A DNA stretch of 64,000 bases, from positions 1 to 64,000 of IMG/VR virus record IMGVR_UViG_3300023179_000021; one strand, written 5' to 3'. The notes beneath the pieces are model-generated. The model saw only the letters and a program-made list of their open reading frames with translations. It had not been told where the DNA came from and did not search any database. This stretch comes from a virus. Both the position numbers and the translations under genes were made by a program. Within the stretch, counting starts at the first letter, position 1. Each line of letters opens with the position of its first letter. Below are positions 2,592 to 57,708 of this stretch, in pieces.

Positions 2592-2592
2592 T

Positions 2593-4888: not shown

Positions 4889-4889
4889 T

Positions 4890-4897
4890 TATTTAGG
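4890..4897 (-). promoter_or_regulatory. T4-type late promoter (CCTAAATA) upstream of gp2
   Basis: TAAATA core immediately 5' of the gp2 start. Confidence 0.55.
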
Positions 4898-4957
4898 CGA
4901 ATTCCCAATATTACCTTATTTACACTGATTTAGCTGTATAAGTATTGGTGCCTGATT

Positions 4958-5392: not shown

Positions 5393-5404
5393 AAATATAT
5401 TTAT
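5391..5404. promoter_or_regulatory. Palindromic pair of T4-type late promoters (ATAAATATATTTAT) serving gp4 and gp48
   Basis: Perfect 14-bp palindrome with ATAAATA on both strands at the strand-switch point. Confidence 0.65.
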
Positions 5405-5420
5405 TCTCATAGGAAAAATA

Positions 5421-6662: not shown

Positions 6663-6665
6663 AAA

Positions 6666-7304: not shown

Positions 7305-7306
7305 AA

Positions 7307-8650: not shown

Positions 8651-8662
8651 GGAATCAATTTA

Positions 8663-10015: not shown

Positions 10016-10021
10016 AAAAAT

Positions 10022-10861: not shown

Positions 10862-10878
10862 TATTATAGGAATTTAAA

Positions 10879-33300: not shown

Positions 33301-33882
33301 ATGCTTTTATTTGATTATGTTACGGTGATGCCAAACTGCTTAAATGATTCTTTACTTGATATGTATTTGTCATTAAAAGAACAAGAAGTTTCTCCGGCAC
33401 TTACCGGTTATTCCGATAACCAAAAAACAAACCTTGAGTATCGTAAAACAAATTGGATTCCTATACCTTATGACCTTTTACAACAAACTCAGGCCTCCAT
33501 TACTTCTTTTTATAATGGTATGCTTCTTGACAAATATAAACAACCAATTAAATTTATTGAACCTACACAATTACTCCATTACCCCGTTGGTGGTGAATAT
33601 AAAGAACATAATGATTCTGAAGATTTTGTCCACGGAAAACTGACAAGAGTTTGCGAAAGAGACTTGTCGATTTTAGCCTACCTAAATGATGACTATGAAG
33701 GTGGTGAACTCGAACTAAATAACTTTAATGTGACATTTAAACCAAAGGCCGGAACTGTGATTTGCTTTCCTTCCTACATTGAATTCACACACCGAGTTTA
33801 TCCGGTGACCAAAGGTAACAGATATACACTTGCAACATGGATATGCACCTATGAACGAATCTACTCCAGACCATACTTATGA
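33301..33882 (+). CDS. 2OG-Fe(II) oxygenase, prolyl 4-hydroxylase-like
   Basis: QLLHY..G.EY..HND..LS...YLNDDYEGGEL..FP....H.V.PV.KG.RY. Confidence 0.88.
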   Translation: MLLFDYVTVMPNCLNDSLLDMYLSLKEQEVSPALTGYSDNQKTNLEYRKTNWIPIPYDLLQQTQASITSFYNGMLLDKYKQPIKFIEPTQLLHYPVGGEYKEHNDSEDFVHGKLTRVCERDLSILAYLNDDYEGGELELNNFNVTFKPKAGTVICFPSYIEFTHRVYPVTKGNRYTLATWICTYERIYSRPYL

Positions 33883-35630: not shown

Positions 35631-36219
35631 ATTATTTCCAACAACTGTCTTGCGTTTTGATTGCTCTGAGGTGATTACAAATGATGATGTAAACGCTATG
35701 ATTTTCGACATTGATAAAATTTGTGACAATGGTAAGTACATACAAGACGATGAAAAAACTCCCAAATATCAAAGTAAACCTATTTTGTTTTTAGATGAAG
35801 CACCAGAAATTTGGCAGAAACTTAAATATACTTTTTTAAATTCTTGCCAACAATATTTACAAACCGTGAATGATTTTGTCAACAATCAAAACTCAATGCA
35901 ATTCACTGGTGCTCGAGCCTGGTTCTACAAGGGCTGGAAATCCTTTAATGTTACACAAACCAACCCATGGCATAATCACAACCCTTCGTTTCTTTCGGGT
36001 GTATTTTATTTAAGTGTTCCTGGAAATGAAAATGAAGGTGGCACCGAATTTATGGACCCAAGACAAAATGAATCTCATGGTGTTCGTAATCAATTTATCG
36101 CACCAATTAATTTAACTTGGGTTATTTTTCCAGGGTGGCTCTATCATCGTTCGAGCTATTGTGATACTGAAACACCTAGGTATGTCATTGCTGCCGATTC
36201 TTATGTAAAAGTGCAATAA
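35611..36219 (+). CDS. Putative 2OG-Fe(II) oxygenase (TIGR02466-like)
   Basis: LFPT..WHNH..FLSGVFYL..IFPGWLYH..R. Confidence 0.78.
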   Translation: MKYQEFKLFPTTVLRFDCSEVITNDDVNAMIFDIDKICDNGKYIQDDEKTPKYQSKPILFLDEAPEIWQKLKYTFLNSCQQYLQTVNDFVNNQNSMQFTGARAWFYKGWKSFNVTQTNPWHNHNPSFLSGVFYLSVPGNENEGGTEFMDPRQNESHGVRNQFIAPINLTWVIFPGWLYHRSSYCDTETPRYVIAADSYVKVQ

Positions 36220-36806
36220 TGTACCAACAGTTTATTCACACAAAACCGGAAGTCAAAGAGGTGGCCACTGATATTTTGGCCGTTGAATTTTGGAAGCCAG
36301 AGTTTTGTGAGTATGTCATTGAGGCTGCCGAAAACATAGGTGGTTTTCAAAGTCATCCAAGTGACCCGGTACCTGGTTCGGAGCTTCGCATAAATAAAAT
36401 TTCCGAAGAGCTTTACACTTCTTATTGTAGACATTGGAAATATATTCTGCAACCCATTCTTGAAGATTATTATCAACTTCCATCGGAGCAATGGTTCTTT
36501 GGTTGGAAAGTTCCGTTCATTATTAAGTATACAATGAACGGTCAAAGAAATTTAAGAAAACATTTTGATGGCAGCTTAATTACGGGATCAGTGAAATTAA
36601 ATGATAAATACAGAGGTGCCGAGTTAGTATTTCCTAGGCAAAAGTTTTCAAATAAGAATGTTCCTATTGGTTGGATTTTACTTTGGCCAAGCAGTATACA
36701 ACATTTACATTTTTGTGATGATTTAATAGAGGGTACAAAATATTCTTTGACTTGTTGGACTAAACAGGATATAAAAGAGCAAGGAATCAATTACAAGGAT
36801 GTTTAA
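36219..36806 (+). CDS. 2OG-Fe(II) oxygenase, lysyl-hydroxylase (PLOD) catalytic-domain-like
   Basis: EFC..VIE..E; FIIKY...Q..L..HFD.S.IT..V.LN..Y.G..L.FPR; H.H....L..GTKY. Confidence 0.75.
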   Translation: MYQQFIHTKPEVKEVATDILAVEFWKPEFCEYVIEAAENIGGFQSHPSDPVPGSELRINKISEELYTSYCRHWKYILQPILEDYYQLPSEQWFFGWKVPFIIKYTMNGQRNLRKHFDGSLITGSVKLNDKYRGAELVFPRQKFSNKNVPIGWILLWPSSIQHLHFCDDLIEGTKYSLTCWTKQDIKEQGINYKDV

Positions 36807-38989
36807 TGGTAACTAAAAATGTATTTCGTTTAAAGAAATATTATGAATTAGTTTTGGCTGGTTGTGTGGGTTATGATGCTACGTTTGATGGCGGTGAATT
36901 GTGGTCGTGGGGTTATAATGGTGATGGCCGACTAGGAGACAATACCAAAACTTGTAGATCCTCTCCAATCCAGATACCAGGTACCCAATGGAATGATATA
37001 GCAATCGGTAATTCTCATTCCTTAGCTCGTAAATCCGATGGTACCTTGTGGGCATGGGGTGATAATGGTAGTGGCTTTCTAGGAAACAATACCACAACTC
37101 CTAGATCCTCTCCAGTCCAGATACCAGGTACCCAATGGAGTGATATAGCAAGTGGTGGTAACCATTCTTTAGCCTGCAAATCTGATGGCACTTTATGGGT
37201 GTGGGGATCTGGTAATTGTGGCCGTTTAGGAATCAATTCTACATCTCAAAGATCCTCTCCGATCCAGGTACCAGGCACCACATGGAGTGATATATCGGGT
37301 GGTGAAAGTCATTCCTTAGCTCTTAAATCCGATGGTACCTTGTGGTCATGGGGTTATAATGTTTATGGCCAACTAGGAGACAATACCACAACTCAAAGAT
37401 CCTCTCCAGTCCAGGTACCAGGCACCCAATGGAATGTTATAGAGGGTGGTAGTTCCCATTCCTTAGCTCGTAAATCCGATGGTACCTTATGGGTATGGGG
37501 TAATAATAGTTCTGGCAACCTAGGAGACAACACCACAACTTGGAAATCCTCTCCAGTCCAGATACCAGGTACCCAATGGAATGATATAGTAGGTAGTGCT
37601 AGTTTTTCTTTAGCTCGTAAATCCGATGGTACCTTATGGTCATGGGGTTATAATGGTTCTGGCCGACTAGGAGACAATACCACAACTAATAGATCCTCTC
37701 CAGTCCAGATACCAGGTACCCAATGGAATGATGTAGGGAGTAGTGTTGCCCATTCCTTAGCTCGTAAATCCGATGGTACCTTATGGTCATGGGGTGTTAA
37801 TAATTGTGGCCAACTAGGAGACAATACCACAACTTATAGATCCTCTCCAGTCCAGATACCAGGTACCCAATGGAATGATATAGCAGGTGGTAGTTCCCAT
37901 TCCTTAGCTCGTAAATCTGTGGCTCCAGTTTTTGATGAGGGTGCTTGTACCTTATGGTCATGGGGTTATAATAATTGTGGCCAACTAGGAGACAATACCA
38001 CAACTAATAGATCCTCTCCAATCCAGATACCAGGTTTTCGGTGGAATGATATAACAGGTAGTGGTTGTCATTCCTTAGCTCGTAAATCCGATGGTACCTT
38101 ATGGGCATGGGGTAATAATGGTCAAGGCCAACTAGGAGACAATACCATAACTCCTAGATCCTCTCCAGTCCAGGTACCAGGTACCCAATGGAATGATATA
38201 GCAAATGGTAATAGGCATTCCTTAGCTCGTAAATCCGATGGTACCTTATGGGCATGGGGTGCTAATGGTAGTGGCGAACTAGGAGACAATACTGGAACTT
38301 ATAGATCCTCTCCAATCCAGATATCAGGTACCCAATGGAATGATATAGAAGGTGGTGGTAGCCATTCCTTAGCTCTTAAATCCGATGGTACCTTATGGGT
38401 ATGGGGTTATAATTATAATGGCCAACTAGGAGACAATACCAATACTAATAGATCCTCTCCAATCCAGGTACCAGGTACCCAATGGAATGATATAGCAGGT
38501 GGTGTTAGCTTTTCCTTAGCTCGTAAATCCGATGGTACCTTGTGGTCATGGGGTGCTAATGGTGTTGCCCAACTAGGAGACAATACCAGAACTTATAGAT
38601 CCTCTCCAGTCCAGGTACCAGGTACCCAATGGAATGATATAGCGGGTGGCGGTTTTCAATCCTTAGCTCGTAAAACCGATGGTACCTTATGGGCATGGGG
38701 TAATAATGGTCGAGGCAACCTAGGAGACAATACCAGAACTTATAGATCCTCTCCAGTCCAGATACCAGGTACCCAATGGAATGATATAGGAGGGGGATGT
38801 CTTTATTCCTTAGCTCGTAAAACCGATGGTACCTTATGGGTATGGGGCGATAATGATAAAGGTCAATTGGGACAAATAACTTATACTGATCGGAGGTCTT
38901 CTCCAGTCCAGGTACCAGGTACCCAATGGAGTGATATAGCAAAGGTTGATAACCATTCTTTAGCCATCAAATACAATAGTACCGCTTAA
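36806..38989 (+). CDS. RCC1/BLIP-II-type repeat protein 3 (2 x 7 blades)
   Basis: 14 repeats of the same unit, somewhat more diverged. Confidence 0.92.
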   Translation: MVTKNVFRLKKYYELVLAGCVGYDATFDGGELWSWGYNGDGRLGDNTKTCRSSPIQIPGTQWNDIAIGNSHSLARKSDGTLWAWGDNGSGFLGNNTTTPRSSPVQIPGTQWSDIASGGNHSLACKSDGTLWVWGSGNCGRLGINSTSQRSSPIQVPGTTWSDISGGESHSLALKSDGTLWSWGYNVYGQLGDNTTTQRSSPVQVPGTQWNVIEGGSSHSLARKSDGTLWVWGNNSSGNLGDNTTTWKSSPVQIPGTQWNDIVGSASFSLARKSDGTLWSWGYNGSGRLGDNTTTNRSSPVQIPGTQWNDVGSSVAHSLARKSDGTLWSWGVNNCGQLGDNTTTYRSSPVQIPGTQWNDIAGGSSHSLARKSVAPVFDEGACTLWSWGYNNCGQLGDNTTTNRSSPIQIPGFRWNDITGSGCHSLARKSDGTLWAWGNNGQGQLGDNTITPRSSPVQVPGTQWNDIANGNRHSLARKSDGTLWAWGANGSGELGDNTGTYRSSPIQISGTQWNDIEGGGSHSLALKSDGTLWVWGYNYNGQLGDNTNTNRSSPIQVPGTQWNDIAGGVSFSLARKSDGTLWSWGANGVAQLGDNTRTYRSSPVQVPGTQWNDIAGGGFQSLARKTDGTLWAWGNNGRGNLGDNTRTYRSSPVQIPGTQWNDIGGGCLYSLARKTDGTLWVWGDNDKGQLGQITYTDRRSSPVQVPGTQWSDIAKVDNHSLAIKYNSTA
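36896..38971 (+). repeat. 147-bp coding tandem repeat, 14 units
   Basis: Same unit as the other two arrays. Confidence 0.9.
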
Positions 38990-39007: not shown

Positions 39008-39865
39008 ATGAAAAATATGAATTTTTGTATAGGGTTGCCTCGTTCCGGTTCAACCCTTTTGATGAATATCCTTCAACAAAACCCTAGCATCTTTACATCA
39101 TCAACTTGTCCAACTCCATACCTAGTTGAAGGTTGTAAAATACAGGCCACATCTATATCCGAGTTTATTGCTATGGATCAGGATGTGCTTACTAAGTCTC
39201 TCCTTTCTTTTATGAAATATGGTATTGATGGTTGGTACAATGCCTTAACCAATAAACCAAATATCATTTCTAAGTCGAGGTGCTGGGACAGTAATTTAAA
39301 TATGATTTTTGCTCTTTATGAAAACCCCAAGATTATCATTTCGCTTCGTGATGTTCGAGATATAATTTGTTCTTTTGAAAAACTTCTTCAAAGACATCCA
39401 ATGTGGACAATAGGTTCCAAAGAAGACCCTGTACACCTAATGCCCTTTGAAAAACGAATGGAAATTTATTGTACCGATGTTGGTGCAAATTTAGGAAGGC
39501 CACTTTATTACCTTCCACATGTTTACGAATGGATGCAAAAGAGGCCAAATAATTTCTTTCTTTTTCGTTTTGAAGACTTTAATGAAAAACCAAAAGAATC
39601 GTTGAGATCACTGTATCAATGGCTCGACCTACCCTATTTCGACCATGACTTAAATAACATACCTCCGGCTGAACAGTATGAACATGACACTGTTTATCGA
39701 GCTCTAGTTTCACACAAGACCGAAACAAAACTAAGATATATGGAACCGAACTATATATCTATGATGACGCCAGAACAATCGGACCTTGTCATACGGCACA
39801 ATGAATTTTTTTACAAGACATTTTATCCTGAAATTTATTATGAAAAATCAAATAGAATTTCGTAA
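39008..39865 (+). CDS. Sulfotransferase family protein
   Basis: 5'-PSB loop GLPRSGSTLL; 3'-PB KIIISLRDVRDIICSF; RFEDF...P...L..LY.WL. Confidence 0.85.
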   Translation: MKNMNFCIGLPRSGSTLLMNILQQNPSIFTSSTCPTPYLVEGCKIQATSISEFIAMDQDVLTKSLLSFMKYGIDGWYNALTNKPNIISKSRCWDSNLNMIFALYENPKIIISLRDVRDIICSFEKLLQRHPMWTIGSKEDPVHLMPFEKRMEIYCTDVGANLGRPLYYLPHVYEWMQKRPNNFFLFRFEDFNEKPKESLRSLYQWLDLPYFDHDLNNIPPAEQYEHDTVYRALVSHKTETKLRYMEPNYISMMTPEQSDLVIRHNEFFYKTFYPEIYYEKSNRIS

Positions 39866-40373
39866 GGTATTTAAAGAACTTCCAGTTTTTACAACAAACA
39901 TTGGTCAACATCGACAGGCTATTGAAATGGCCGCTAAAGCCATTTTTGAAGAGCGCCAAAAAAATCCAAGAAGAATGGAATCTAATGTTAAGGCCGATTA
40001 TGTTTCTTCTTGGGGAAGCCATTTAAACAATCCAAATTTTCAGCCACTCATTGACATTGTTCTATCGTTTTGTGAAGAAGTATCTAAGACATATTTTAAT
40101 GTTGAATTGAAGTATAAAATATATAATTGTTGGGGTATGTTATATGAGAAAGGCGACTATGCAGTAAAACATTCACATTTTCCATCGACCTTTGCTGCGG
40201 TTATATACCTTGAAGTTGAAAAAGATTCTGCACCAATTGTATTTGAAGATGAACTGACCGTTGTTCCAGCTTCAGGCTCATTAATTCTTTTTCCAGCGAT
40301 TCTTCACCATGAAGTGCCTAAAACAAAAGGACGAAGAATGGTAATTTCTATGAACATCGACCACATATCATAA
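39840..40373 (+). CDS. Putative 2OG-Fe(II) oxygenase (TIGR02466-like)
   Basis: WGMLY.KGD....HSHFP..F.AVIYL..LILFP..L.HEV..R.VISMNI. Confidence 0.8.
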   Translation: MKNQIEFRKVFKELPVFTTNIGQHRQAIEMAAKAIFEERQKNPRRMESNVKADYVSSWGSHLNNPNFQPLIDIVLSFCEEVSKTYFNVELKYKIYNCWGMLYEKGDYAVKHSHFPSTFAAVIYLEVEKDSAPIVFEDELTVVPASGSLILFPAILHHEVPKTKGRRMVISMNIDHIS

Positions 40374-44179: not shown

Positions 44180-44963
44180 CATAGCCCTTAGAACTTGCGA
44201 TAATAATTCAATACATGAAAGTCGCTCAAGTACAGGTAAAAGAATTATACCATCAGATAAACCAATGCTAATTAAAAAGTGTTTCGTTTCTCTTTGTAAT
44301 TCAATTGAGAAAACCGAAAATACCGATATAAGGCTTTGGATTTACGATGACCATAGTTCCGAAGATACAAAAAAATATTTAAAAACGGTTGCTGCCAATA
44401 AAAACATTGAATATTATTTTTTTGATTTAGAAGAAAGAGGTCATAATTATTCTGGCCTGAAACAGTTTGAATGTTGTCGGGATAATGGCCGAGATTGGTC
44501 ATACTCAGTTGAAGATGATTATTTACATTATCCAAGTGCTATACCAGAATTTTTATCAATGGGTGAGCGATTTAGAAATATGCTTGGCACTCCAATTGGT
44601 ATTCGACCTGATGATTGTCCTATGTCTTATACCAGTAATACTTCATTTAGAACAAAACCATCAATTATATTTTTAGGTAATGATCGACACTGGAAAACAA
44701 CGCAGCATACCACACAAACTATGTTTTTAGATTCAAGCGTTTTCAAAGACTATTGGGATATTTTTGCAGTTATGGCAAAATATTATGGCCGCTTGGTTAT
44801 CTTTGAAAACGATACGCTAAATAAGTTATGGGATGATGGTGTTTCAACAAGAGGTCCAGTGCCATTGTTTTCTCCAATACCATCACTTGCTATGCACATT
44901 ACTTATGATACTGAACCACCTTTTACTGATTATAAAAAACTTTGGGATGAAATTGAACTATGA
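44160..44963 (+). CDS. Glycosyltransferase, GT2-like
   Basis: IYDDHSS; YSVEDDYLH; SPIPSLA.H. Confidence 0.7.
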   Translation: MTKRKLDIALRTCDNNSIHESRSSTGKRIIPSDKPMLIKKCFVSLCNSIEKTENTDIRLWIYDDHSSEDTKKYLKTVAANKNIEYYFFDLEERGHNYSGLKQFECCRDNGRDWSYSVEDDYLHYPSAIPEFLSMGERFRNMLGTPIGIRPDDCPMSYTSNTSFRTKPSIIFLGNDRHWKTTQHTTQTMFLDSSVFKDYWDIFAVMAKYYGRLVIFENDTLNKLWDDGVSTRGPVPLFSPIPSLAMHITYDTEPPFTDYKKLWDEIEL

Positions 44964-45796
44964 ATAAAATTTTAATTATGGGTCTTCCAGGATCCGGTAA
45001 AACATATTTTGCTGAGCGCCTTAAAAGATACCTTGAAACACACGGCACAAGGTCATTATCATCAATTGAAGATGTTCCATATCCAAATTTAAATGCTCGT
45101 GTTGATTGGTTTAATGCCGATGAGGTTCGCAAAAAATTTAACGATTGGGATTTTAGTCGTGAAGGCCGTATTCGCCAATCAATTCGTATGTTTGATTTTG
45201 CTTTGAGATGTAAAGGTGATTATGTCATTTGTGATTTCGTGGCACCTTTACCTGAGATGCGACACAATTTCAAAGCCGATTGGACAATTTGGATGGACAC
45301 AATTGATGCTGGTCGTTATGAAGATACCAATAAAGCCTTTGTTCCGCCAGATGTTTATGATTTTCGTATCAATGAACAAAACGCCGAGAAGTGGGTCCCC
45401 TATGTTGGTGAAATGATTCTCCAAGAAAAAAGAAGGCCTCGATTTGATTGGCAAAAAGAAACAGTTCAAATGCTGGGTCGTTGGCAACCATGGCATCCAG
45501 GACATCGAGCGCTATTTGAAAGAGCAATTGCAAAGACCGGACAAGTGGCCATTATGATTCGTGATTGTCAAGGTTGGAATGGCTCCAATCCTTTTGCCAT
45601 TGAACAAGTTAAAAACTTTATTCGCCGTGATTTGGATCCTTTATATCAAGGTCAATATGAAATTCTTGTTGTGCCAAATATTGTAAACATCACATACGGC
45701 CGTGACGTTGGCTATAAAATTGAACAAGAAGTTTTTGATGATACGATTCACAACATTTCAGCCACAAAAATAAGAGAATCAATGGGCCTCAAGTGA
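44960..45796 (+). CDS. cysC: Adenylylsulfate kinase-like domain fused to an HxGH nucleotidyltransferase domain
   Basis: GLPGSGKT P-loop, NADEVR..DWDFSREGRIRQ; C-terminal GRWQPWHPGH and ISATKIR. Confidence 0.72.
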   Translation: MNKILIMGLPGSGKTYFAERLKRYLETHGTRSLSSIEDVPYPNLNARVDWFNADEVRKKFNDWDFSREGRIRQSIRMFDFALRCKGDYVICDFVAPLPEMRHNFKADWTIWMDTIDAGRYEDTNKAFVPPDVYDFRINEQNAEKWVPYVGEMILQEKRRPRFDWQKETVQMLGRWQPWHPGHRALFERAIAKTGQVAIMIRDCQGWNGSNPFAIEQVKNFIRRDLDPLYQGQYEILVVPNIVNITYGRDVGYKIEQEVFDDTIHNISATKIRESMGLK

Positions 45797-46018: not shown

Positions 46019-46726
46019 GTGATACCCAAAATAGTTCACCTCTCTTGGAAAGATAAGAATCTTTTTGAGAGACATTCACCACTTATAATTTATGGTGTTA
46101 AAAGGCTTCGAGATTTAAACCCAGATTGGGACATAAGAATAACCATTGATGAAGAAATTAATGACTATTTAAATGAAACAATGCGGCATGATTTTTCTTT
46201 AGTTGAACATAAAGGCATTGTGGCCAAAACAGATATTTGGAGGCTCTATAAGTTACTTTATGAGGGTGGTATTTACGTTGACATTGACCGCTTCTGTGAT
46301 GTTAAATTGTCAGAAGTTATACCAAAAAATGTAAAACAAATTCTTCCTGTTTGTAGGTATTATGATTTTTCTCACGATTTAATGATAAGCGCACCAAATA
46401 ACCCGGTTTATAATACAACAATTTCAATGTATTTGCATCGTAGAAAGATAGGATTTGATAACATTTATTTCTTAGGCGCTCAAACCTACATGCACGCTAT
46501 CACTCATACTTTAGTTGGTGAAATGATTAACACGAATCCGGGCCAAGAAAAGTTTGAAGGAATAATAAATAAGATAAAAAGTCTAGGTTTCATTGAAGTT
46601 TTTGTTGAAGATCCGCCATATTTCACTTTTCTATATCGAAATCGTGAGGATATAGGTGACTGGGGAAAACTAAAGAAAGAATTCTACTCCAAATCAGGCA
46701 TCAAACATTGGACAGGAGAATGGTAA
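46019..46726 (+). CDS. Glycosyltransferase, GT32/DXD sugar-binding (OCH1-like)
   Basis: IPKIVH.SW..NPDW..DIWRL..L..EGGIYVDID. Confidence 0.85.
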   Translation: MIPKIVHLSWKDKNLFERHSPLIIYGVKRLRDLNPDWDIRITIDEEINDYLNETMRHDFSLVEHKGIVAKTDIWRLYKLLYEGGIYVDIDRFCDVKLSEVIPKNVKQILPVCRYYDFSHDLMISAPNNPVYNTTISMYLHRRKIGFDNIYFLGAQTYMHAITHTLVGEMINTNPGQEKFEGIINKIKSLGFIEVFVEDPPYFTFLYRNREDIGDWGKLKKEFYSKSGIKHWTGEW

Positions 46727-47113: not shown

Positions 47114-49771
47114 ATGAAAATAGAAATAACCAAGGCTAGTCCTTCTGTTAGCACTGTAAAACTTGGAGGTAATTTAACAGCAGCAGTTGCAACGGGTGTT
47201 CAAGGAACTTCAGGTTTTTCCGGTTACAGTGGAGATAATCCAGGCTCAAGTGGTTATTCTGGTCGTTCTGGTTTTTCCGGTTACAGTGGAGATAATCCAG
47301 GCTCAAGTGGTTATTCGGGTCGTTCGGGTTATTCTGGTTACTCAGGTATTTCTGGTTTTTCTGGTTTTTCTGGTTTTTCGGGTGCTCAATTTGTAGGATC
47401 ATCTGGTTATTCAGGTGTATCTGGTTACTCTGGTAATAGTACATCAGGTTATTCGGGACCATCGGGTTACTCCGGGTTTTCTGGTGTTTCCGGTTACTCT
47501 GGTATTTCGGGTGCTTCAGGTATCTCAGGTTATTCTGGACAATCTGGTTTTTCTGGTACTTCCGGGATAAGTGGTTTTTCTGGCGCTTCTGGTTACTCTG
47601 GTTTCTCAGGCATTTCAGGCTATTCGGGACCATCAGGATATTCTGGTCAATCGGGATTTTCTGGCCAAATTGGTAACTCCGGTTATTCTGGTCAATTAGG
47701 CATTTCTGGTTATTCTGGCCAATTAGGTACATCCGGTTACTCCGGTGTCTCTGGTTATTCCGGCATTTCTGGTTATTCCGGATTCTCTGGTATTTCCGGA
47801 TACTCAGGCGTTTCTGGTTATTCTGGATATTCTGGTATTTCAGGCGCTTCAGGTATAAGTGGTTATTTCGGTATTTCTGGATATTCTGGATTTTCTGGTT
47901 ATTCCGGGTTTTCTGGTATTTCTGGTGCTTCGGGTTTATCTGGTTATTCTAGTATCTCTGGTTATTCCGGGTTTTCTGGTATTTCTGGTGCTTCGGGTTT
48001 ATCTGGTTACTCAGGTATTTCTGGATTTTCTGGTATCTCTGGTTATTCTGGGTTTTCCGGTATTTCAGGTGCTTCGGGTTTATCTGGTTATTCTGGTATT
48101 TCTGGTTATTCGGGAAGCGTTGGTGCGGTTGGAGGATTTTTCTTTTATACTTTCGACACCGCTAAGACAACAGATACCGCACCAGATTCACAATCATTTC
48201 ATTCAAATAGTCCGGGAAGCCAAGCATTAATTTCTAAACTTTGGTTTGATGATGATGATATAGCCGGCGCAAATGTTTATCCTTTTGTGAGTTCTGTTTT
48301 CAATACGACAGGAACACCTAAAGGTTTTTTAAGTATTCGTGGTTCAGCTGGCACTGAACGTCTTTACATACAAGTTGATTCTGTAACAAAGAAAACTGGA
48401 TATTATGAATTAAGTGTTACTGTGCTTTCAAATTCACCAGATGCATTAGATGATGGTGATTTGTCTGGATTTAATTTAACGAGAAATGGTGATTCGGGCA
48501 CCTCTGGTTATTCTGGTATAAGTGGTTATTCCGGCATATCCGGATATTCAGGTTATTCTGGTATATCTGGTTACTCCGGTTTTTCGGGTATTTCTGGTTA
48601 CTCCGGATTCTCAGGTATTTCTGGCTATTCCGGTTATTCTGGCATTTCAGGTACTTCTGGTATATCTGGTTATTCAGGCGTTTCTGGTTACTCCGGATTC
48701 TCAGGTATTTCTGGCTATTCCGGTTATTCTGGCATTTCAGGTACTTCTGGTATATCTGGTTATTCAGGCGTTTCTGGTTACTCCGGATTCTCAGGTATTT
48801 CTGGCTATTCTGGCTATTCTGGTATTTCGGGTTACTCTGGTTATTCGGGCATTTCTGGTTACTCCGGATTCTCAGGTATTTCTGGCTATTCTGGCTATTC
48901 TGGTATTTCGGGTTACTCTGGTTATTCGGGCATTTCTGGTTATTCTGGATATTCTGGTATTTCTGGTGCTTTGGGTATTTCTGGTTACTCTGGATTTTCA
49001 GGTATTTCGGGTTACTCTGGTTATTCGGGCATTTCTGGTTATTCTGGATATTCTGGTATTTCAGGCGATTCAGGTATAAATGGTTATTCTGGTATTTCTG
49101 GATATTCTGGATTTTCTGGTTACTCCGGGTTTTCTGGTATTTCTGGTTACTCTGGATTTTCTGGTATTTCAGGAGCTTCAGGCATTTCTGGATTTTCTGG
49201 TATTTCTGGCTATTCTGGTATTTCTGGTGCTTCGGGTATTTCTGGTTACTCTGGATTTTTTGGTATTTCTGGATTCTCTGGTATTTCTGGATTCTCTGGT
49301 ATTTCTGGTTTTTCTGGCGCTGCCGGTCCATCAACCACAATTAACGCCACAAATGATACAACAACAGCTTCTGATTTTTATCCTGTATTTGTTGCTGGAA
49401 CCGGATCAAACCAAACAGCTACAGCATCTTCAACCAAACTTTATTTCAGACCTTCAACTGGACAATTAAGCGCTACAGATTTCAACACACTTTCGGATAT
49501 AGCATATAAAGAAAATATAGACACTATCCATAATGCACTAAATAAAGTATTAGAACTAAGAGGAGTTTCTTATCAGTTTAGAGATTCAAATAAACCCGCT
49601 TTTGGAGTTATCGCTCAAGAAATAGAGAATGTTTTGCCTGAAGTTGTTAATCAAAATGATAATGGCGACAAAACTGTATCTTACAATCATATTATTGCTG
49701 TGTTGATTGAAGCTATTAAAGAACAACAACAAATTATAGATAAAATAAATCATAAAATAAAGAACTTGTAA
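47114..49771 (+). CDS. Long collagen-like (Ser-Gly-X)n fibre with central globular domain and C-terminal peptidase S74 chaperone
   Basis: Gly at every third residue (SGY/SGF/SGI); LSD.AYKENI..GVIAQEIE..LPEVV..VSY..LIEAIKE. Confidence 0.85.
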   Translation: MKIEITKASPSVSTVKLGGNLTAAVATGVQGTSGFSGYSGDNPGSSGYSGRSGFSGYSGDNPGSSGYSGRSGYSGYSGISGFSGFSGFSGAQFVGSSGYSGVSGYSGNSTSGYSGPSGYSGFSGVSGYSGISGASGISGYSGQSGFSGTSGISGFSGASGYSGFSGISGYSGPSGYSGQSGFSGQIGNSGYSGQLGISGYSGQLGTSGYSGVSGYSGISGYSGFSGISGYSGVSGYSGYSGISGASGISGYFGISGYSGFSGYSGFSGISGASGLSGYSSISGYSGFSGISGASGLSGYSGISGFSGISGYSGFSGISGASGLSGYSGISGYSGSVGAVGGFFFYTFDTAKTTDTAPDSQSFHSNSPGSQALISKLWFDDDDIAGANVYPFVSSVFNTTGTPKGFLSIRGSAGTERLYIQVDSVTKKTGYYELSVTVLSNSPDALDDGDLSGFNLTRNGDSGTSGYSGISGYSGISGYSGYSGISGYSGFSGISGYSGFSGISGYSGYSGISGTSGISGYSGVSGYSGFSGISGYSGYSGISGTSGISGYSGVSGYSGFSGISGYSGYSGISGYSGYSGISGYSGFSGISGYSGYSGISGYSGYSGISGYSGYSGISGALGISGYSGFSGISGYSGYSGISGYSGYSGISGDSGINGYSGISGYSGFSGYSGFSGISGYSGFSGISGASGISGFSGISGYSGISGASGISGYSGFFGISGFSGISGFSGISGFSGAAGPSTTINATNDTTTASDFYPVFVAGTGSNQTATASSTKLYFRPSTGQLSATDFNTLSDIAYKENIDTIHNALNKVLELRGVSYQFRDSNKPAFGVIAQEIENVLPEVVNQNDNGDKTVSYNHIIAVLIEAIKEQQQIIDKINHKIKNL
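47207..49320 (+). repeat. Low-complexity 9-bp period (tcNggNNNN) coding repeat in two blocks (~47207-48115 and ~48490-49320) with higher-order 57-, 54- and 90-bp duplications
   Basis: tctggttat/tctggtatt/tctggattt units. Confidence 0.85.
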
Positions 49772-49772
49772 A

Positions 49773-50654
49773 ATGGCAATATCACTAAGAACACTATTAG
49801 GCGCAGGCGTATCGGGTTATTCGGGTAAATCCGGTTTTTCTGGTTATTCTGGCACTTCGGGTACTTCTGCTTATTCCGGTATTTCAGGTTTTTCTGGCCG
49901 ATCAGGTTATTCTGGTATCTCTGGTTATTCTGGAATATCTGGTTATTCCGGCATTTCTGGTTATTCTGGTTATTCCGGCATTTCTGGTTATTCTGGTTAT
50001 TCCGGCATCTCTGGTTATTCTGGTTATAGTGGTTATTCTGGTGTTTCTGGATATAGTGCGGCTTCACCTGGACCAGAAGGTGTATCTGGTTATTCTGGTT
50101 ACTCTGGTTATTCCGGCATCTCTGGGTATTCAAGTTATTCCGGCATCTCTGGTTATTCCGGCATTTCCGGTTATTCCGGCATTTCCGGTTATTCCGGCAT
50201 TTCCGGTTATTCTGGTGCTTCAGGCCCATCCACCACAATTAATGCTACAAATGATACAACAACAGCTTCTGATTTTTATCCGGTATTTGTTGCAGCTACA
50301 GGTTCAAACCAGACAGCCACAGCATCTTCAACCAAACTTTATTTTAGGCCATCTACTGGCCAGTTGAGTGCTACAGATTTCAATACACTTTCTGATGTAG
50401 CGTATAAAGAAAATATTGAGCCAATTAATAATGCGCTAAATAAGATATTAGAGTTGCGTGGCGTTTCTTATCGTATGAAAGGTTCTAAAAAGCAATCTTT
50501 GGGTGTTATTGCACAAGAAATTCAACATATATTGCCTGAAGTTGTTAATCAAAATGATAATGGTGATAAAACAGTTTCTTATAACCACATTATTGCTGTA
50601 CTAATTGAAGCTATTAAAGAACTTAAAGAAGAGATAGACCGATTTAAAAAATAA
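49773..50654 (+). CDS. Short collagen-like (Ser-Gly-X)n fibre with peptidase S74 chaperone
   Basis: SGY/SGI triplets; C-terminus closely similar to the upstream fibre. Confidence 0.85.
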   Translation: MAISLRTLLGAGVSGYSGKSGFSGYSGTSGTSAYSGISGFSGRSGYSGISGYSGISGYSGISGYSGYSGISGYSGYSGISGYSGYSGYSGVSGYSAASPGPEGVSGYSGYSGYSGISGYSSYSGISGYSGISGYSGISGYSGISGYSGASGPSTTINATNDTTTASDFYPVFVAATGSNQTATASSTKLYFRPSTGQLSATDFNTLSDVAYKENIEPINNALNKILELRGVSYRMKGSKKQSLGVIAQEIQHILPEVVNQNDNGDKTVSYNHIIAVLIEAIKELKEEIDRFKK

Positions 50655-50668
50655 AATTTGGAGTTGTT

Positions 50669-52603
50669 ATGAAATATAGTGTGGTGATACCAACATATAA
50701 TCACTGTGATGATTTTCTTAAACCATGTATCGAATCAATTTTAGAATACACTCATATGAAAGACATAGAATTAATTGTGTCAGCCAATGGGTGTACCGAT
50801 AACACAAAAGAATACCTTGAAAGTCTAAAACTTAATACAAGTATTCATCTAAAAATAATTTGGTCCGATAGTGCAATTGGTTTTGCCAAAGCTGTTAATT
50901 TAGGCATTAAAGCCGCATCTTGTGATAAAATTATTCTTCTTAATAATGATACCAAACTTCTTCAACAAGAAAAAAACACCTGGTTAAATTTACTTGAAGC
51001 ACCCTTTGAAAATGAAAAATGTGGTATTTCTTGTGTGGTAAAAGAATACTCTAAAGTAATGAATAAAGATTTTGCTGTTTTCTTTTGTGTAATGATTGAC
51101 CGAAAAGTGTTTAATACCATTGGTTATTTAAATGAAGAATATGAAATTGGTTCAGGCGAAGATATGGAATTTTCTATTCTTGCCGAAGCGGCTGGGTTTC
51201 AAGTTACACAAGTTTCTGATAAAATAAAACTTGATCGAAAATATTTTACTGGTTCTTTTCCCATATATCATTTTGGTGAAGGTACTGTACACGACGAATC
51301 TTTAGTGCCGAATTGGAGTTCTGTATTTTTAAAAAATGCTTTGAAGGTAGCTAAGAAACATAATGAAGAATGGAGAAAAGAAAAAAACATGAATCATCCT
51401 AAAATTGGTGTAATTACTCCCGTTTATAATGATACCGAACATTTATTTCATGCAATTAATTCGGTAGAAACTCAAAATTTAGGTAATGTTGTACACTTTA
51501 TCTATGATGACTGTTCAACCGATGGCCTTGTAAATTCGGTCAGAGATTATATGAAAGGCAACAAATCGATTGTCTATATGAAAGGCATTGAAAACAAAGG
51601 CCAAGCACATTCAAGAAATCAAGCAATCACTGCAGCTCTCGCCGAGGGTTGCAATTATTTAGCTTTTTTAGATTCAGATGATGTTTGGTTTCCAAATCAT
51701 TTACAAAGAGCACTTGATGATTTAAGAACTAAAAATTGTGACATTGTTTATTCAACTCCACAATTTGTAACTGAAGATGGCCAAATTGTTTTTCCTTATA
51801 ACATTCCAGTGCCACATGTTTTTATTGGCAAACAACTAAGACATAATAACTTTATTTGGGTTTCAAGTGTCGTTTGTAATGCTCGTTGTTTTCTTTATGA
51901 AAAATTTGATGATACATTAAACAGCGTTGAAGAATGGGATATGTGGATTAGATTAGATGCAAGAGGATATAAATTTTATAAAGATGATGAAATAACCACT
52001 CGTTATTTGGTTCGTGATGGGTCGCAAGCCTCAAAGGGTGGTGAAAAGATGCCATTGTTTTGGCAGAAACATCAACAGTTACCGCAACTTAAATTACATT
52101 TGGCTTGTGGCCACGATTATGATGAGGATTATATCAACATTGATTTATATGCTCCTGAAGATGCTAGATGTGATATTCGTTTTGATGTTCAAAAATTACC
52201 GTATGATGATAATACCATTGATGAAATCAAGGCCTTTCATATCATTGAACATTTTCACTTTTTTGAAATACAAGAAGTTCTCAAAGAATGGCATCGTGTG
52301 CTGAAGCCCGGCGGAAAATTATATCTTGAAACTCCGGATTTTTTAGAAACTTGTCGTTCTTTTGTTGAAGGTAGTCCGATACCAGGTTATGATATAGAAC
52401 AATGGAGAATTTTGTTATACGGTCATTTTTTCGCTCATGCTTGGATTCCTGGGCAAATACATAAATTTTTATTTACTGAAACACAACTTAGAACAAACCT
52501 TGGATGGGCTGGGTTTAAAACTGTAAACCGTGTTCGGCCGGCGTCTAAGTATGTAATGAACGAAACACATCATTTATTTTTAACAGTTGAGGCTTTTAAG
52601 TGA
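50669..52603 (+). CDS. GT2-GT2-methyltransferase multidomain protein
   Basis: YSVVIPTYN..LLNND; IGVITPVYN..DDCSTD..FLDSDD; LHLACG..HIIEHF..RVLKPGG.L. Confidence 0.85.
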   Translation: MKYSVVIPTYNHCDDFLKPCIESILEYTHMKDIELIVSANGCTDNTKEYLESLKLNTSIHLKIIWSDSAIGFAKAVNLGIKAASCDKIILLNNDTKLLQQEKNTWLNLLEAPFENEKCGISCVVKEYSKVMNKDFAVFFCVMIDRKVFNTIGYLNEEYEIGSGEDMEFSILAEAAGFQVTQVSDKIKLDRKYFTGSFPIYHFGEGTVHDESLVPNWSSVFLKNALKVAKKHNEEWRKEKNMNHPKIGVITPVYNDTEHLFHAINSVETQNLGNVVHFIYDDCSTDGLVNSVRDYMKGNKSIVYMKGIENKGQAHSRNQAITAALAEGCNYLAFLDSDDVWFPNHLQRALDDLRTKNCDIVYSTPQFVTEDGQIVFPYNIPVPHVFIGKQLRHNNFIWVSSVVCNARCFLYEKFDDTLNSVEEWDMWIRLDARGYKFYKDDEITTRYLVRDGSQASKGGEKMPLFWQKHQQLPQLKLHLACGHDYDEDYINIDLYAPEDARCDIRFDVQKLPYDDNTIDEIKAFHIIEHFHFFEIQEVLKEWHRVLKPGGKLYLETPDFLETCRSFVEGSPIPGYDIEQWRILLYGHFFAHAWIPGQIHKFLFTETQLRTNLGWAGFKTVNRVRPASKYVMNETHHLFLTVEAFK

Positions 52604-53562
52604 GTATATTGTGTTCTATTTCCACTAAAGGTAGATATGATACAACACTACCAATGGCTATACAATCGGTTATTACACAAACTCTTTTACCAAATAAATT
52701 TGTATTGTTTGATGATAATGATGAACCAAAAGATTTAAGAGATATACAACATTATCAATACCTTTTTAAAATTCTCGACGAAAAAAATATTCAATGGGAA
52801 GTAGTTTTTGGACCTAAAAAAGGCCAACATCACAATCATCAAATAGCTAACAGTATGAATTATGAATGGGTTTGGAGGTTAGATGATGACACAGTGGCTG
52901 AATCAAATGTTCTAGAAAATTTAATGTCTTATACAAATTCAAAAGTTGGTGCAGTTGGTGGTTCAATATTAACACCACCATATATTAAAGGCCTTCAGTC
53001 AACCGGAAAAATTGAAAATATTGAAGAACAAAATATTCAATGGGATATGATAACAAATGTTAAAGAAGTTGACCATTTACATTGTTCTTTTGTTTATCGT
53101 GCCGGTATTCAAGACTATAACCTTTCATTATCGAGAGCAGCATTTCGTGAAGAAACATTATTTACTTTTGGTTTAAAACAAAAAGGCTATAAATTACTTG
53201 TCGTACCAAATGCTATAACTTGGCATCTTAAAAATCAATCTGGTGGTGTAAGAACAAATACCAAAGAAATGTTCGACAATGATGATCGAATATTTAAAAA
53301 CTTTTTGCAATTTAAAGATAAAACAATTGTAGTTCTTGATTGTGGTATGGGCGACCACATAGTATTTTCACATGTGCTTGATGACATACCAAATGCTGAA
53401 ATATTTTCTTGCTATCCCGACATAGTGCCAGGTCGAAGTATTGCTGAAGCTATAGATTTATTTGGTGAAATAGATCAATTCAATGTTTACAGAAAAATGG
53501 ATCAATGGAATTGGAAAGATTCATTAGAAAATGCCTTTCGAAAGATGTATATTGTAAAATGA
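52600..53562 (+). CDS. GT2-like glycosyltransferase with a C-terminal GT9-like N-domain
   Basis: QSVITQT..FDDND..WRLDDD..REET; CGMGDHI. Confidence 0.75.
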   Translation: MSILCSISTKGRYDTTLPMAIQSVITQTLLPNKFVLFDDNDEPKDLRDIQHYQYLFKILDEKNIQWEVVFGPKKGQHHNHQIANSMNYEWVWRLDDDTVAESNVLENLMSYTNSKVGAVGGSILTPPYIKGLQSTGKIENIEEQNIQWDMITNVKEVDHLHCSFVYRAGIQDYNLSLSRAAFREETLFTFGLKQKGYKLLVVPNAITWHLKNQSGGVRTNTKEMFDNDDRIFKNFLQFKDKTIVVLDCGMGDHIVFSHVLDDIPNAEIFSCYPDIVPGRSIAEAIDLFGEIDQFNVYRKMDQWNWKDSLENAFRKMYIVK

Positions 53563-53987
53563 TAATTATTTCTCCTTATTCAAAACCTCTTCGTAATGGA
53601 CAAAATAATCCTAAAAATTACCCATATTGGAAAGAACTGATTTCATTAATTAAAGAACCAATTATACAAGTGGGAACTAATGAAGAAATTCAACTTGTAA
53701 AAGAGTTTCATAAAAATTTATCAATACCTGAGCTTCGAAACCTTATAAATTCATGTCGAACATGGATTTCAGTTGACAGTTTTTTTCAGCATTTAGCCTG
53801 GGATCAAGGTAAACCCGGCATTGTGCTTTGGGGGCAATCAGATCCGTTGATATTTGGTCATCCTGAAAACACAAATTTATTAAAAGATCGTTCTTATTTG
53901 CGGGAAAAACAATTTTGGTTGTGGGAACAATGTAACTATAGAAAGGAGGCCTTTGTCGAACCGGCAGAAGTTCTAAAGTATTTGTAA
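53559..53987 (+). CDS. GT9-like glycosyltransferase C-terminal domain
   Basis: KNYPYW..IQVG..ISVDSFFQHLA...KPGIVLWG. Confidence 0.72.
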   Translation: MIIISPYSKPLRNGQNNPKNYPYWKELISLIKEPIIQVGTNEEIQLVKEFHKNLSIPELRNLINSCRTWISVDSFFQHLAWDQGKPGIVLWGQSDPLIFGHPENTNLLKDRSYLREKQFWLWEQCNYRKEAFVEPAEVLKYL

Positions 53988-54016: not shown

Positions 54017-54970
54017 ATGGCCACTCCAACAACAAGAACACAATTTCGTGATTACTGCCTTAGACGGCTAGGATTTCCAGTCATTGATATTAATGTCGAT
54101 GACGATCAAATTGATGATAGAATTGATGATGCACTGAGTTTTTTCTATGATTACCACTACGATGGAACAGAAAAACTTTTCATGAAGCATCAAATAACAC
54201 AAACAGACATCGACCGCCGTTGGATTTATTGTCCCGATGCGGTGCTTTTTGTCACTGGCGTTCTTCGTTTTGATGATTCAAATTCTTCAATTAATATGTT
54301 TGACCTTAGATACCAATTAAGGCTACATGATTTATATGATTTCACTTCAGTTTCTTATGTTTCGTATGAAATTACCATGCAACATATTCAATCTTTAAAC
54401 CTTCTTTTTTCTGGAACACCACAATTTCGTTTTAATCGTTTGCAAAACAAAGTATTTTTAGACATTGATTGGACAAGAGATGTTGAAGTTGGAGATTATG
54501 TAATTATTGAATGTTATCGTAAAATGGCACCAGAAACTGTTAGTCTTACAGGCACAGCCGCACTTACATCTGGTAACACAACGGTTACAGGAACTGGTAC
54601 AAAATTTGACCAAGAAATTGTAGAAAATGATTTTGTAACATTTGGCTCCGAAACAATTCAAGTCAGTAAAATTATTTCGCCAACTAGCATAACACTAACT
54701 ACTGCACCATCAGCAACAAATGCTGCAGCAACAATGACAGTTTCCGGCCTCACTGATGTTTGGGATACTCGTTTTTTAAAAGCTTATGCCACTGCTAAAA
54801 TTAAAATGCAGTGGGGTTCTAATCTTAAAAAATTCGGTGGCATACAAATGCCTGGTGGAGTTACATTAAATGGCCAACAAATTTATGATGAAGCTATGGA
54901 AGAAATTAAATATCTTGAAGAGCAAATGTATAACTCAACAAGTATGCCTAGTGAAATTATGATAGGGTAA
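54017..54970 (+). CDS. gp13: Neck protein
   Basis: YCLRRLG.PVIDINVDDDQIDDRIDDAL; K.QWG.NL.KF.G.Q.PGGVTLNG. Confidence 0.93.
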   Translation: MATPTTRTQFRDYCLRRLGFPVIDINVDDDQIDDRIDDALSFFYDYHYDGTEKLFMKHQITQTDIDRRWIYCPDAVLFVTGVLRFDDSNSSINMFDLRYQLRLHDLYDFTSVSYVSYEITMQHIQSLNLLFSGTPQFRFNRLQNKVFLDIDWTRDVEVGDYVIIECYRKMAPETVSLTGTAALTSGNTTVTGTGTKFDQEIVENDFVTFGSETIQVSKIISPTSITLTTAPSATNAAATMTVSGLTDVWDTRFLKAYATAKIKMQWGSNLKKFGGIQMPGGVTLNGQQIYDEAMEEIKYLEEQMYNSTSMPSEIMIG

Positions 54971-57273: not shown

Positions 57274-57708
57274 ATGGAAAAATTAATTGAACAATTGAAA
57301 GTTATTTTGGGTACAAATTTTGCACTATATTACAAAGCACACAGCTACCATTGGAATGTAGAAGGGCCTGATTTTCCTCAATACCACAAATTTTTGAAAA
57401 AACTTTATTCAGCAATTTTTGAAAATGTTGATAATATTGCCGAACAAATACGTGCTCTTGATTCTTATGCACCAACTAGTTTATCAAGAATATTAGAACT
57501 TTCAGATATTAGTGAGACTGATATAATACCAAGTCCTTTGATTATGATGGCTAATTTAAAAAATGAAAATGATCGTTTTATGATACATGTTCGTGCTGGA
57601 ATTGTAGCTGCTAATGAAGCTGATGAGCCCGGAATTTCAAATTTTCTCCAAGACATTTTAAATCAACATCAAAAACATTCTTGGATGCTTCGTAGTATTA
57701 TTAAATAA
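57274..57708 (+). CDS. dps: Dps/ferritin-like protein
   Basis: KAHSYHWNVEG.DF..YH..D.IAEQIR.L..H.KH.WMLRS. Confidence 0.9.
   Translation: MEKLIEQLKVILGTNFALYYKAHSYHWNVEGPDFPQYHKFLKKLYSAIFENVDNIAEQIRALDSYAPTSLSRILELSDISETDIIPSPLIMMANLKNENDRFMIHVRAGIVAANEADEPGISNFLQDILNQHQKHSWMLRSIIK

Follow-up and report, generated by a model that had tools for sequence, protein, structure and literature searches.

Serine-rich collagen-like phage fibres are genetically linked to a downstream glycosyltransferase cassette

Introduction

The window analysed here (64,000 nucleotides; positions 1 to 64,000 of IMG/VR virus record IMGVR_UViG_3300023179_000021) is the first 64 kb of one viral sequence of 145,640 bp. 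It encodes two adjacent fibre proteins, P0001 and P0002, whose collagen-like tracts consist largely of Gly-X-Ser triplets, and glycosyltransferase genes lie on both sides of the pair. The locus raises the question of whether these transferases put sugars on the fibres and, if so, which of them do. An initial annotation had named the fibres as the prime substrate of the whole glycosylation island and as a possible phage proteoglycan core, and had suggested that their helix probably needs dense O-glycosylation or sulfation. We find that glycosyltransferase genes are linked to Gly-X-Ser fibres well beyond chance, and that the linkage is confined to the three genes directly downstream (50669-53987), which are referred to below as the cassette. 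With moderate confidence, we propose that P0001 and P0002 are trimeric pelagimyophage fibres whose serines are O-glycosylated by this cassette.

Architecture and composition of the fibres

Counted as runs of at least four in-phase Gly-X-Y units, P0001 holds 196 triplets and P0002 holds 44. The total of 240 agrees with the initial estimate of well over 200 across the two genes. Ser occupies the Y position in 224 of the 240 triplets (181 of 196 in P0001 and 43 of 44 in P0002), and Tyr (89), Ile (60) and Phe (32) together account for 181 of the 240 X positions. The tracts were rightly described as nearly proline-free, with Pro at five of the 480 X and Y positions (the whole proteins contain 15 Pro in P0001 and seven in P0002), and charged residues are found at ten of them (~2%). 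Given Gly at 24% of residues, the chance of the 94 in-phase glycines of the second P0001 tract is ~5e-59. The Pfam Collagen model (PF01391) matches both P0001 (2e-81) and P0002 (6e-20), exceeding the 27.2-bit cutoff.

The DNA repeat units are mutually 63-80% alike, one short array excepted, and the repeat serines of P0001 are written with five codons drawn from both Ser codon families (TCT 101, TCA 28, TCC 24, TCG 21 and AGT 7). Because the DNA repeats have diverged and five Ser codons are in use, the pattern is maintained in the protein and does not reflect recent slippage. Open reading frames (ORFs) in other frames across the repeats (for example 47148-47732 and 48471-49340, both on the minus strand) were rejected as repeat artefacts. 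The source genome contains no further collagen-type genes besides these two.

Both proteins end, as initially annotated, in a Peptidase_S74 domain (1e-13 for P0001 and 2e-15 for P0002), in which the S-D-x3-K motif is kept; its Ser-Lys dyad is presumably catalytic, as in the endosialidase chaperones. The S74 domain of P0002 aligns to the C-terminus of phage S16 gp37 (PDB 6f45) with this motif preserved, and PHROG tail-fibre families match the fibre C-terminus. Stalk and chaperone together are 87% identical between P0001 and P0002 over 133 residues. The central domain of P0001 has no sequence match in the PDB and no homologue in any fetched locus. Homologues of the small protein encoded just upstream of P0001 (Table 1) precede Gly-X-Ser fibres and other collagen fibres alike in related loci.

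Table 1 Features of the fibre genes, the cassette and their borders in the window
Feature	Position	Strand	Remarks
VrlC-type protein, 1982 aa	20096-26044	+	phrog_358
Small fibre-associated protein, 111 aa	46774-47109	+	phrog_1084 (1e-22); phrog_3304 'L-shaped tail fiber protein assembly' (1.5e-19)
P0001, long collagen-like fibre, 885 aa	47114-49771	+	27-aa N-terminus, tract 1, 116-aa globular insert, tract 2, stalk, S74
P0001 collagen tract 1, residues 28-342	47195-48139	+	102 triplets, split into six runs by brief breaks of register
P0001 central non-collagen domain, residues 343-458 (116 aa)	48140-48487	+	
P0001 collagen tract 2, residues 459-740	48488-49333	+	94 unbroken Gly-X-Y triplets
P0001 stalk between collagen and chaperone, residues 741-793	49334-49492	+	Kept in 68 fibre ORFs, non-Ser collagens included
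P0001 Peptidase_S74 chaperone	49493-49768	+	Pfam residues 794-845, E 1e-13; Ser794, Lys799
P0002, short collagen-like fibre, 293 aa	49773-50654	+	Collagen residues 12-153, stalk 154-206, S74 207-293 (Ser207, Lys212)
GT2-GT2-methyltransferase, 644 aa, variable cassette member	50669-52603	+	Pfam Glycos_transf_2 twice (1.3e-39) and Methyltransf_11
Cassette core 1, GT2-like GT-A enzyme, 320 aa	52600-53562	+	Invariant DD (38-39) and DDD (95-97) in the family alignment
Cassette core 2, GT9 C-terminal half, 142 aa	53559-53987	+	Start overlaps stop of the 320-aa gene
gp13-like protein	54017-54970	+	Directly 3' of the cassette; gp14 neck and gp15 proteins next

Judged by their sequences, P0001 and P0002 are S74-chaperoned collagen-like fibres of unusual Ser/aromatic composition. 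The strict Gly period and the adjacent C-terminal trimerization domain expected of a collagen are both found; the usual stabilizers of the triple helix (Pro/Hyp, Thr/Gln hydration and charge pairs; reviewed in PMC8968730) are missing from the tracts. This absence would suit some other glycine-periodic fold, such as a polyglycine-II/polyproline-II (PPII) bundle or a β-solenoid. We nevertheless regard such a fold as very improbable, in view of the unbroken Gly period through 94 triplets, the trimerizing S74 domain at the C-terminus, the strength of the Pfam Collagen match and the fact that the same S74 stalk bears ordinary Gly-X-Gln and Gly-X-Thr collagens in sister fibres. We know of no structure of a Gly-(Tyr/Ile/Phe)-Ser repeat sequence.

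Linkage of the downstream genes to the fibres

To our set of 79 fetched loci carrying the fibre protein (locus handles begin with L below), ORFs were assigned by our own calls and searched by phmmer with every island protein of the window. Homologues of the 644-residue protein were found in 37 of these loci and those of the 320- and 142-residue proteins in 45 each. The flanking transferases noted initially are indeed present on both sides, with a GT32-like DXD gene upstream (46019-46726) and the cassette downstream, and the two sides behave differently: among the 79 loci, the GT32-like, GT2_291, GT25 and oxygenase genes of the upstream side have no homologue or a single one, and the sulfotransferase has three. 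The idea of the whole island as one fibre-modifying system was therefore rejected. That the fibre is the prime substrate is supported as far as the linkage of the three downstream genes goes and is not supported for the upstream transferases, the oxygenase and the sulfotransferase.

The recurring gene order is one or more collagen genes, the variable GT2 protein, the 320-residue enzyme and the 142-residue protein. In most cases, 6-20 nt separate the collagen stop codon from the start of the first transferase (15 nt in the window). The window genes are tightly packed on the same strand, with stop/start junctions at 49771/49773 between the fibres and at 52603/52600 and 53562/53559 within the cassette, where the genes overlap.

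The initial annotation had called for a survey of such proteins for glycosyltransferase neighbours, and most of them do carry the cassette: it is present in 30 of the 42 evaluable dereplicated Gly-X-Ser loci. The 12 loci without it each offer at least 3.5 kb of downstream room, and a further 13 truncated loci were not counted. None of five evaluable non-Ser collagen loci has the cassette. As the non-collagen S74 fibre of the window found only eight loci, a profile of S74-only fibres was used as the control instead. Of the 67 dereplicated loci obtained in this way, 48 have no collagen, 18 have collagens of the Gly-X-Gln or Gly-X-Thr type and one has a truncated Gly-X-Ser collagen; all of them lack the cassette. 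The comparison of 30/42 Gly-X-Ser loci with 0/71 S74-fibre loci without such collagens (5 + 66) yields a Fisher p of 5e-18, a value that is only indicative because the loci are related and not independent.

The reverse search gives the same picture. The 320-residue enzyme retrieved 177 viral stretches, in which the gene for the 142-residue protein follows almost always, and a Gly-X-Ser collagen lies within 3 kb in 22 of the 26 evaluable dereplicated loci. The flanks of 120 cassette loci hold 23 gene families on the upstream side and 28 on the downstream side, and the cassette-carrying genomes range from complete ones of 36 kb to ones of 190 kb. The many flanking families, the wide range of genome sizes and the existence of a cultured carrier, P19250A, support the independence of these occurrences.

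Sulfation, the other modification first envisaged, is not borne out, since sulfotransferase homologues accompany Gly-X-Gln or other fibres and not Gly-X-Ser ones. The sulfotransferase of the window (PF13469/PF00685) lies at 39008-39865; in related phages, its homologues (in L008, L019, L054, L169, L181 and L199) occur alongside Gly-X-Gln fibres and also alongside GT25, GT9-like and oxygenase genes.

The cassette enzymes

The 644-residue protein is the variable member of the cassette. Its closest NCBIfam model is TuaG (1.5e-35, far under the family cutoff). Against the PDB, its second GT2 domain resembles chondroitin synthase (3.7e-13) and its first heparosan synthase (6e-7), both at the level of generic GT2 similarity. 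Homologues range from 251 to ~1500 residues, and one record has a 2970-residue open frame with at least five GT2 domains. Very large multi-GT2 proteins of this kind adjoin collagens at L068:6825-11334 (record G045 6909-11423), L120:2952-7421 and L098:4028-7972, and look like glycan assembly lines. No hydrophobic or membrane segment was found in any of the transferases of the window island.

The similarity to chondroitin and heparosan synthases, being generic, and a trivial Ser-Gly dipeptide are all that the proposed likeness to a proteoglycan amounts to. The tracts have no acidic flanks (charged residues, ~2%), and the Pfam scans of the neighbours detected no xylosyltransferase-type family, so that neither of these features of glycosaminoglycan attachment is found.

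The 320-residue enzyme carries, after its GT-A domain, a C-terminal α/β piece of 80-84 residues with an invariant G-x-G-D-H motif. Its AlphaFold2 model (pLDDT 89) gave ppGalNAc-T2, B4GALNT1 and TarP as the best Foldseek matches, with RmlT also found. Together these matches depict a generic GT-A enzyme. We do not take those to the polypeptide GalNAc-transferases as a sign that the acceptor is a protein, since other GT-A enzymes reach similar scores. The family has no PHROG family and no sequence match in the PDB, and its Atlas clusters are labelled 'Viruses 100%'. In 185,579 prokaryote species genomes there were four matches, all on contigs of metagenome-assembled genomes, one of which reads collagen, GT2 protein, 320-residue enzyme. 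In practice, the family is virus-only.

The 142-residue family profile aligns with residues 180-295 of WaaC (E 0.008). Its invariant residues K19 and D73 fall on the donor-binding motifs of WaaC (K192- and D261-type positions), which we take to be the conserved Lys and Asp of the nucleotide-sugar domain. The domain was modelled within a natural fusion, P0123, where it superimposes on TibC (Z 15.2 over 148 residues), WaaF (15.2), WaaC (15.0) and another GT9 enzyme (14.4), the next chain scoring 12.3. By this model, the protein is the C-terminal half, which binds the nucleotide sugar, of a GT-B fold of the GT9 heptosyltransferase type, and the GT9 N-terminal acceptor domain is absent from it. 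P0123 (489 residues, nine member sequences) joins the 320-residue enzyme (62% identity) to the 142-residue protein; since such a fusion exists in nature, the pair probably acts together.

Immediately upstream of the cassette in L099 are genes for a cytidylyltransferase-like protein, a PfkB kinase, a cupin and an NAD-dependent epimerase. Their annotations suggest pieces of an ADP-heptose-type pathway, which would plausibly fit a heptose-type donor for the GT9 half. The window itself encodes a 278-residue protein in which a P-loop kinase is fused to a nucleotidyltransferase-like domain (44960-45796), homologues of which stand directly after the cassette in L103 (4538-5392) and between two collagen genes in L066 (5584-6420). 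This protein may make a sugar-nucleotide donor.

Proposed mechanism

In the mechanism that we propose, the C-terminal S74 domain would trimerize three chains and nucleate a C-to-N zipper of the Gly-X-Ser triple helix, after which it would cut itself off at Ser794 in P0001 or Ser207 in P0002. Collagen rises by 0.286 nm per residue. On this basis P0001 is predicted to form rods of ~90 and 81 nm (~170 nm) with the 116-residue knob between the tracts, and P0002 a rod of ~40-41 nm. Soluble cytoplasmic cassette enzymes would O-glycosylate the outward-facing Y-position serines, up to ~540 per P0001 trimer and ~130 per P0002 trimer. As for the order and identity of the sugars, we infer that the conserved 320-residue GT-A protein and the 142-residue GT9 half form one enzyme that lays the inner sugars, with the GT9 half plausibly providing a heptose-type donor site, and that the outer glycan, which differs between lineages, is extended and capped by the variable multi-GT2/methyltransferase protein. 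By way of precedent, galactosyl-threonine at the Y position stabilizes the cuticle collagen of Riftia, and (Gly-Pro-Thr)10 peptides become helical only in their glycosylated form.

The fibre genes sit in the late structural block, with the VrlC-type baseplate gene on one side and the neck genes gp13, gp14 and gp15 on the other. Neck whiskers are as likely a product as baseplate fibres, because the position directly upstream of gp13 is the slot in which T4 carries the whisker gene wac. The same fibre/cassette module is also found in siphovirus tail regions.

A bolder extension, which we put forward only tentatively and consider doubtful as a whole, is that of a 'glyco-collagen'. Here a mobile virus-only cassette of abundant aquatic phages would sugar the Ser of nearly every Gly-X-Ser triplet, and the glycans would stack on Tyr and Phe, favour the PPII conformation and replace hydroxyproline, giving a bottlebrush fibre that is mucin- or proteoglycan-like, with outer sugars, determined by the variable cassette member, that tune host range or shield the fibre.

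Alternative explanations

Several observations weigh against glycosylation of the fibres by the cassette. We know of no measured value for the stability of Pro-free, charge-free Gly-(Tyr/Ile/Phe)-Ser helices. With regard to the enzymes, the 80-84-residue tail of the 320-residue protein, considered as the missing N-terminal half of GT9, gave no PDB match in a profile search; the P0123 model is confident in its GT9 half only, the N-terminal part being poor; and a GmhA-type (SIS_2) gene is absent from the source genome. With regard to the linkage, the 12 evaluable Gly-X-Ser loci without the cassette mostly encode giant Trp-containing collagens, and in most cassette-free records neither a GT2 nor a GT9 gene lies close to the fibre. 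Conversely, four of the 26 evaluable cassette loci (L096, L098, L099 and L132) have no Gly-X-Ser collagen inside 3 kb; L132 has a fragment of a collagen at a distance of 3.7 kb upstream of the gene for the 320-residue enzyme. In L098 and L099 the cassette comes after sugar-nucleotide genes, in L103 after an S74 fibre that is rich in Thr, Gly and Ser but not a collagen, and in L112 after seven LamG-type Gly/Thr/Ser-rich proteins.

The collagen-free loci, together with the family membership of the enzymes, are what the cassette would present if it modified host surface glycans (lipopolysaccharide core or O-chain, or capsule) to block superinfection or to aid release, with the neighbouring fibre being shared cargo of a hypervariable region. 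GT2 and GT9 are classic lipopolysaccharide and polysaccharide families, GT9 being that of the lipopolysaccharide heptosyltransferases, and the named proteins that the GT2 domains match best are polysaccharide enzymes (TuaG and the chondroitin and heparosan synthases). It is also how transferase genes have been viewed in print, both in pelagimyophages, where they are described as host O-chain modifiers (PMC7029224), and in cyanophages (PMC1079782). We judge this explanation unlikely, as it does not account for the tracking of the cassette with Ser-at-Y collagens and not with Gln- or Thr-type collagens or collagen-free S74 fibres, nor for its movement with the fibre gene into at least 23 contexts. 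The 320-residue family is, moreover, essentially absent from cellular genomes, and the cassette proteins lack a membrane anchor and are encoded co-directionally inside a late structural block.

The neighbours in L103 and L112 could also point to a broader target, in which the cassette would glycosylate exposed Ser/Thr-rich fibre, tail or head proteins generally and the Gly-X-Ser collagen would be simply its commonest neighbour; mycobacteriophage glycans, as cited in PMC12619734, sit on capsid and tail-tube subunits. That none of the 48 collagen-free S74 fibre loci carries the cassette, and that Ser-at-Y collagens are its strongest and commonest partners, makes this reading distinctly improbable.

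It may finally be asked whether the fibres fold and work unmodified, with inter-chain packing of Tyr, Phe and Ile holding the helix at sea temperature and the transferases serving elsewhere or adding few sugars. The cassette-free loci, most of them without a nearby GT2 or GT9 gene, fit this picture, as does the repeat composition, which is nearly identical with and without the cassette (Tyr at X 0.30 versus 0.34, Ile at X 0.20 versus 0.21 and Ser at Y 0.87 in both). Since 12 of the 42 evaluable loci lack the cassette and their repeats have the same composition, the initial suggestion that the helix probably needs dense O-glycosylation is not supported. An unmodified fibre would, however, leave the linkage statistics unexplained, and many of the cassette-free records are fragments with an estimated completeness of 8-40%. 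We give this possibility slightly less weight still, and retain glycosylation of the fibre serines by the cassette as the reading that we favour.

Comparison with known systems

The closest parallels are BclA3 with SgtA in Clostridioides difficile and BclA in Bacillus anthracis, which like the present locus combine a repeat of Gly-X-(hydroxy amino acid) type with an adjoining GT-A gene. SgtA, a GT-A enzyme encoded beside bclA3, attaches O-GlcNAc to the Y-position Thr residues in the Gly-Pro-Thr repeats (PMC7157674), and the glycan of BclA-type proteins is thought to help their hydration and stability (PMC8968730). The differences are considerable. The BclA repeats are Gly-Pro-Thr, whereas those here are Gly-(Tyr/Ile/Phe)-Ser with ~1% Pro; in place of the C1q/TNF-like C-terminal domain of BclA, Pfam finds S74 only, which is predicted to be self-cleaving; the enzymes, a pair made up of a virus-specific GT-A protein and a split GT9, do not resemble SgtA and lack its TPR domain; and BclA and BclA3 are spore (exosporium) proteins, whereas the present fibres belong to a phage virion.

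The pairs TibC/TibA and Aah/AIDA-I resemble the cassette in that an enzyme of GT9-type fold sugars (with heptose) many serines of a repetitive adhesin. TibC and Aah (bacterial autotransporter heptosyltransferases, BAHT, TIGR04414) are single chains of ~400 residues, unlike the separate 142-residue C-terminal half found here, and their acceptor is a β-helix, whereas a collagen helix is the proposed acceptor here. The 142-residue protein does not match the BAHT family model; the NCBIfam scan returned weak lipopolysaccharide-heptosyltransferase models only. It has just one near-invariant Cys, which speaks against an iron-finger of the BAHT type.

Among phages, Gly-X-Y repeats were noted as fibre markers in orf23 and orf28 of the marine T4-like phage P-SSM2 (PMC1079782), and 'triple collagen repeats' and many glycosyltransferases were noted in pelagimyophages (PMC7029224). 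These fibre candidates come from the same genome type and the same region as P0001 and P0002. Neither paper gives a Ser/aromatic composition or a coupling of fibre and transferase, and both assign the transferases to host lipopolysaccharide. The layout of the 644-residue protein is that of A064R of chlorovirus PBCV-1, a 638-residue GT-GT-methyltransferase that builds capsid glycans (PMC9614988). The likeness is one of layout, and the A064R glycans are N-linked to the capsid of a eukaryotic virus. As in the mycobacteriophages, whose virion glycans sit on the capsid and tail-tube C-termini (as cited in PMC12619734), phage-encoded soluble transferases are found here inside a structural operon.

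Collagen-like fibres of phages, bacterial collagen-like proteins that carry glycans and the glycosylation of phage virions are each known singly. Within the paper library searched, we found no paper on the Ser/aromatic repeat class or on a transferase cassette tied to such fibres.

Distribution of Gly-X-Ser collagens

A protein search with the fibre gave 1178 matches (E <= 1e-3); among the matches listed, most have Ser at 0.7-0.98 of the Y positions and Tyr, Phe, Ile or Trp at X. In IMG/VR, more than 598 stretches matched, of which 427 were confirmed as relatives, with collagen ORFs of up to 3371 residues and 942 triplets. Sister S74 fibres on the same stalk have other repeats, mostly Gly-(Ile/Thr/Leu)-Gln or Gly-X-Thr. 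Those with Gln at Y and Ile, Thr or Leu at X make up a second large class of S74-chaperoned phage collagens (e.g. 241 triplets, with Gln in 200), exemplified by L169:817-5622 and 7889-10429, L190:1-4200 and L189:1-3051; the cassette is never present with them.

The only cultured carrier found for both fibre and cassette is Methylophilaceae phage P19250A, a siphovirus of 38.7 kb (L155, KX815270.1). Its gene 0023 encodes a 1202-residue Gly-X-Ser collagen of 281 triplets and is followed by a methyltransferase gene and then by homologues of the 320- and 142-residue proteins. This collagen (3750-7355) is annotated as a 'tail length tape-measure protein', and a Gly/Thr/Ser-rich fibre-like protein at 405-3182 is annotated as a 'PE family protein'. 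Both annotations look wrong.

Genomic setting

The source genome is a T4-like marine pelagimyophage relative. Its gp6-type baseplate wedge protein shares 45% identity with the counterpart in Pelagibacter phage HTVC008M, with the Methylophilales 'Melnitz' phages next closest, and a megablast of the 44-54 kb region against cultured phages gave no match. Every gene beyond 5.3 kb is on the + strand. Along the window, the baseplate hub and wedge proteins are followed by the VrlC-type gene, a 28-kb mixed block, the neck genes and the terminase region; beyond gp15 come the small terminase, a ferritin-like gene, the large terminase, sheath, tube and portal. The ferritin-like gene (PF00210, 1e-23) lies at 57274-57708, between the two terminase genes. 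The mixed block, between VrlC and gp14, is the pelagimyophage 'host recognition cluster' of Zaragoza-Solas et al., who reported tail fibres and many glycosyltransferases there and read the latter as modifiers of the host O-chain (PMC7029224).

In the window, the T4-type late-promoter word TATAAATA has just three copies (13437, 27026 and 63330), each on the + strand just 5' of structural genes; the site closest upstream of the fibre/cassette block is that at 27026. A promoter and terminator scan of this block gave nothing exceeding shuffled sequence, and its terminator-like matches were dismissed as repeat artefacts.

Other genes of the host recognition cluster include a third S74-chaperoned fibre (259 residues, without collagen; 26262-27041), which directly follows the VrlC-type gene, and three paralogues of 727-729 residues (28013-30202, 31091-33280 and 36806-38989) with ~14 RCC1 repeats each, forming double propellers. 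The GC content is 0.40-0.43 across most of 28-40 kb, the RCC1-repeat stretch, compared with ~0.33 in the rest of the window; these paralogues may be receptor-binding proteins, possibly acquired from elsewhere. The cluster also encodes three 2-oxoglutarate (2OG)-Fe(II) oxygenases (33301-33882, 35611-36219 and 39786-40373), one of which is prolyl-hydroxylase-like (PF13640). The collagen tracts offer such enzymes almost no Pro or Lys for hydroxylation.

Conclusions

The stability of collagens is explained by Pro/Hyp, by hydration or by charge pairs, none of which the Gly-X-Ser fibres possess, and these fibres are very common in viral metagenomes (more than 427 IMG/VR relatives). If the cassette does glycosylate them, it would represent a new route to a stable triple helix and, for biomaterials, a collagen scaffold that needs no hydroxylase and offers a defined sugar handle. 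The cultured carrier P19250A makes glycosylation testable. Glycosylated fibres would also constitute a second, widespread case of phage-encoded virion glycosylation, and 'auxiliary metabolic genes' of SAR11-type phages that are now read as acting on host lipopolysaccharide would be reassigned to the phage's own fibres.

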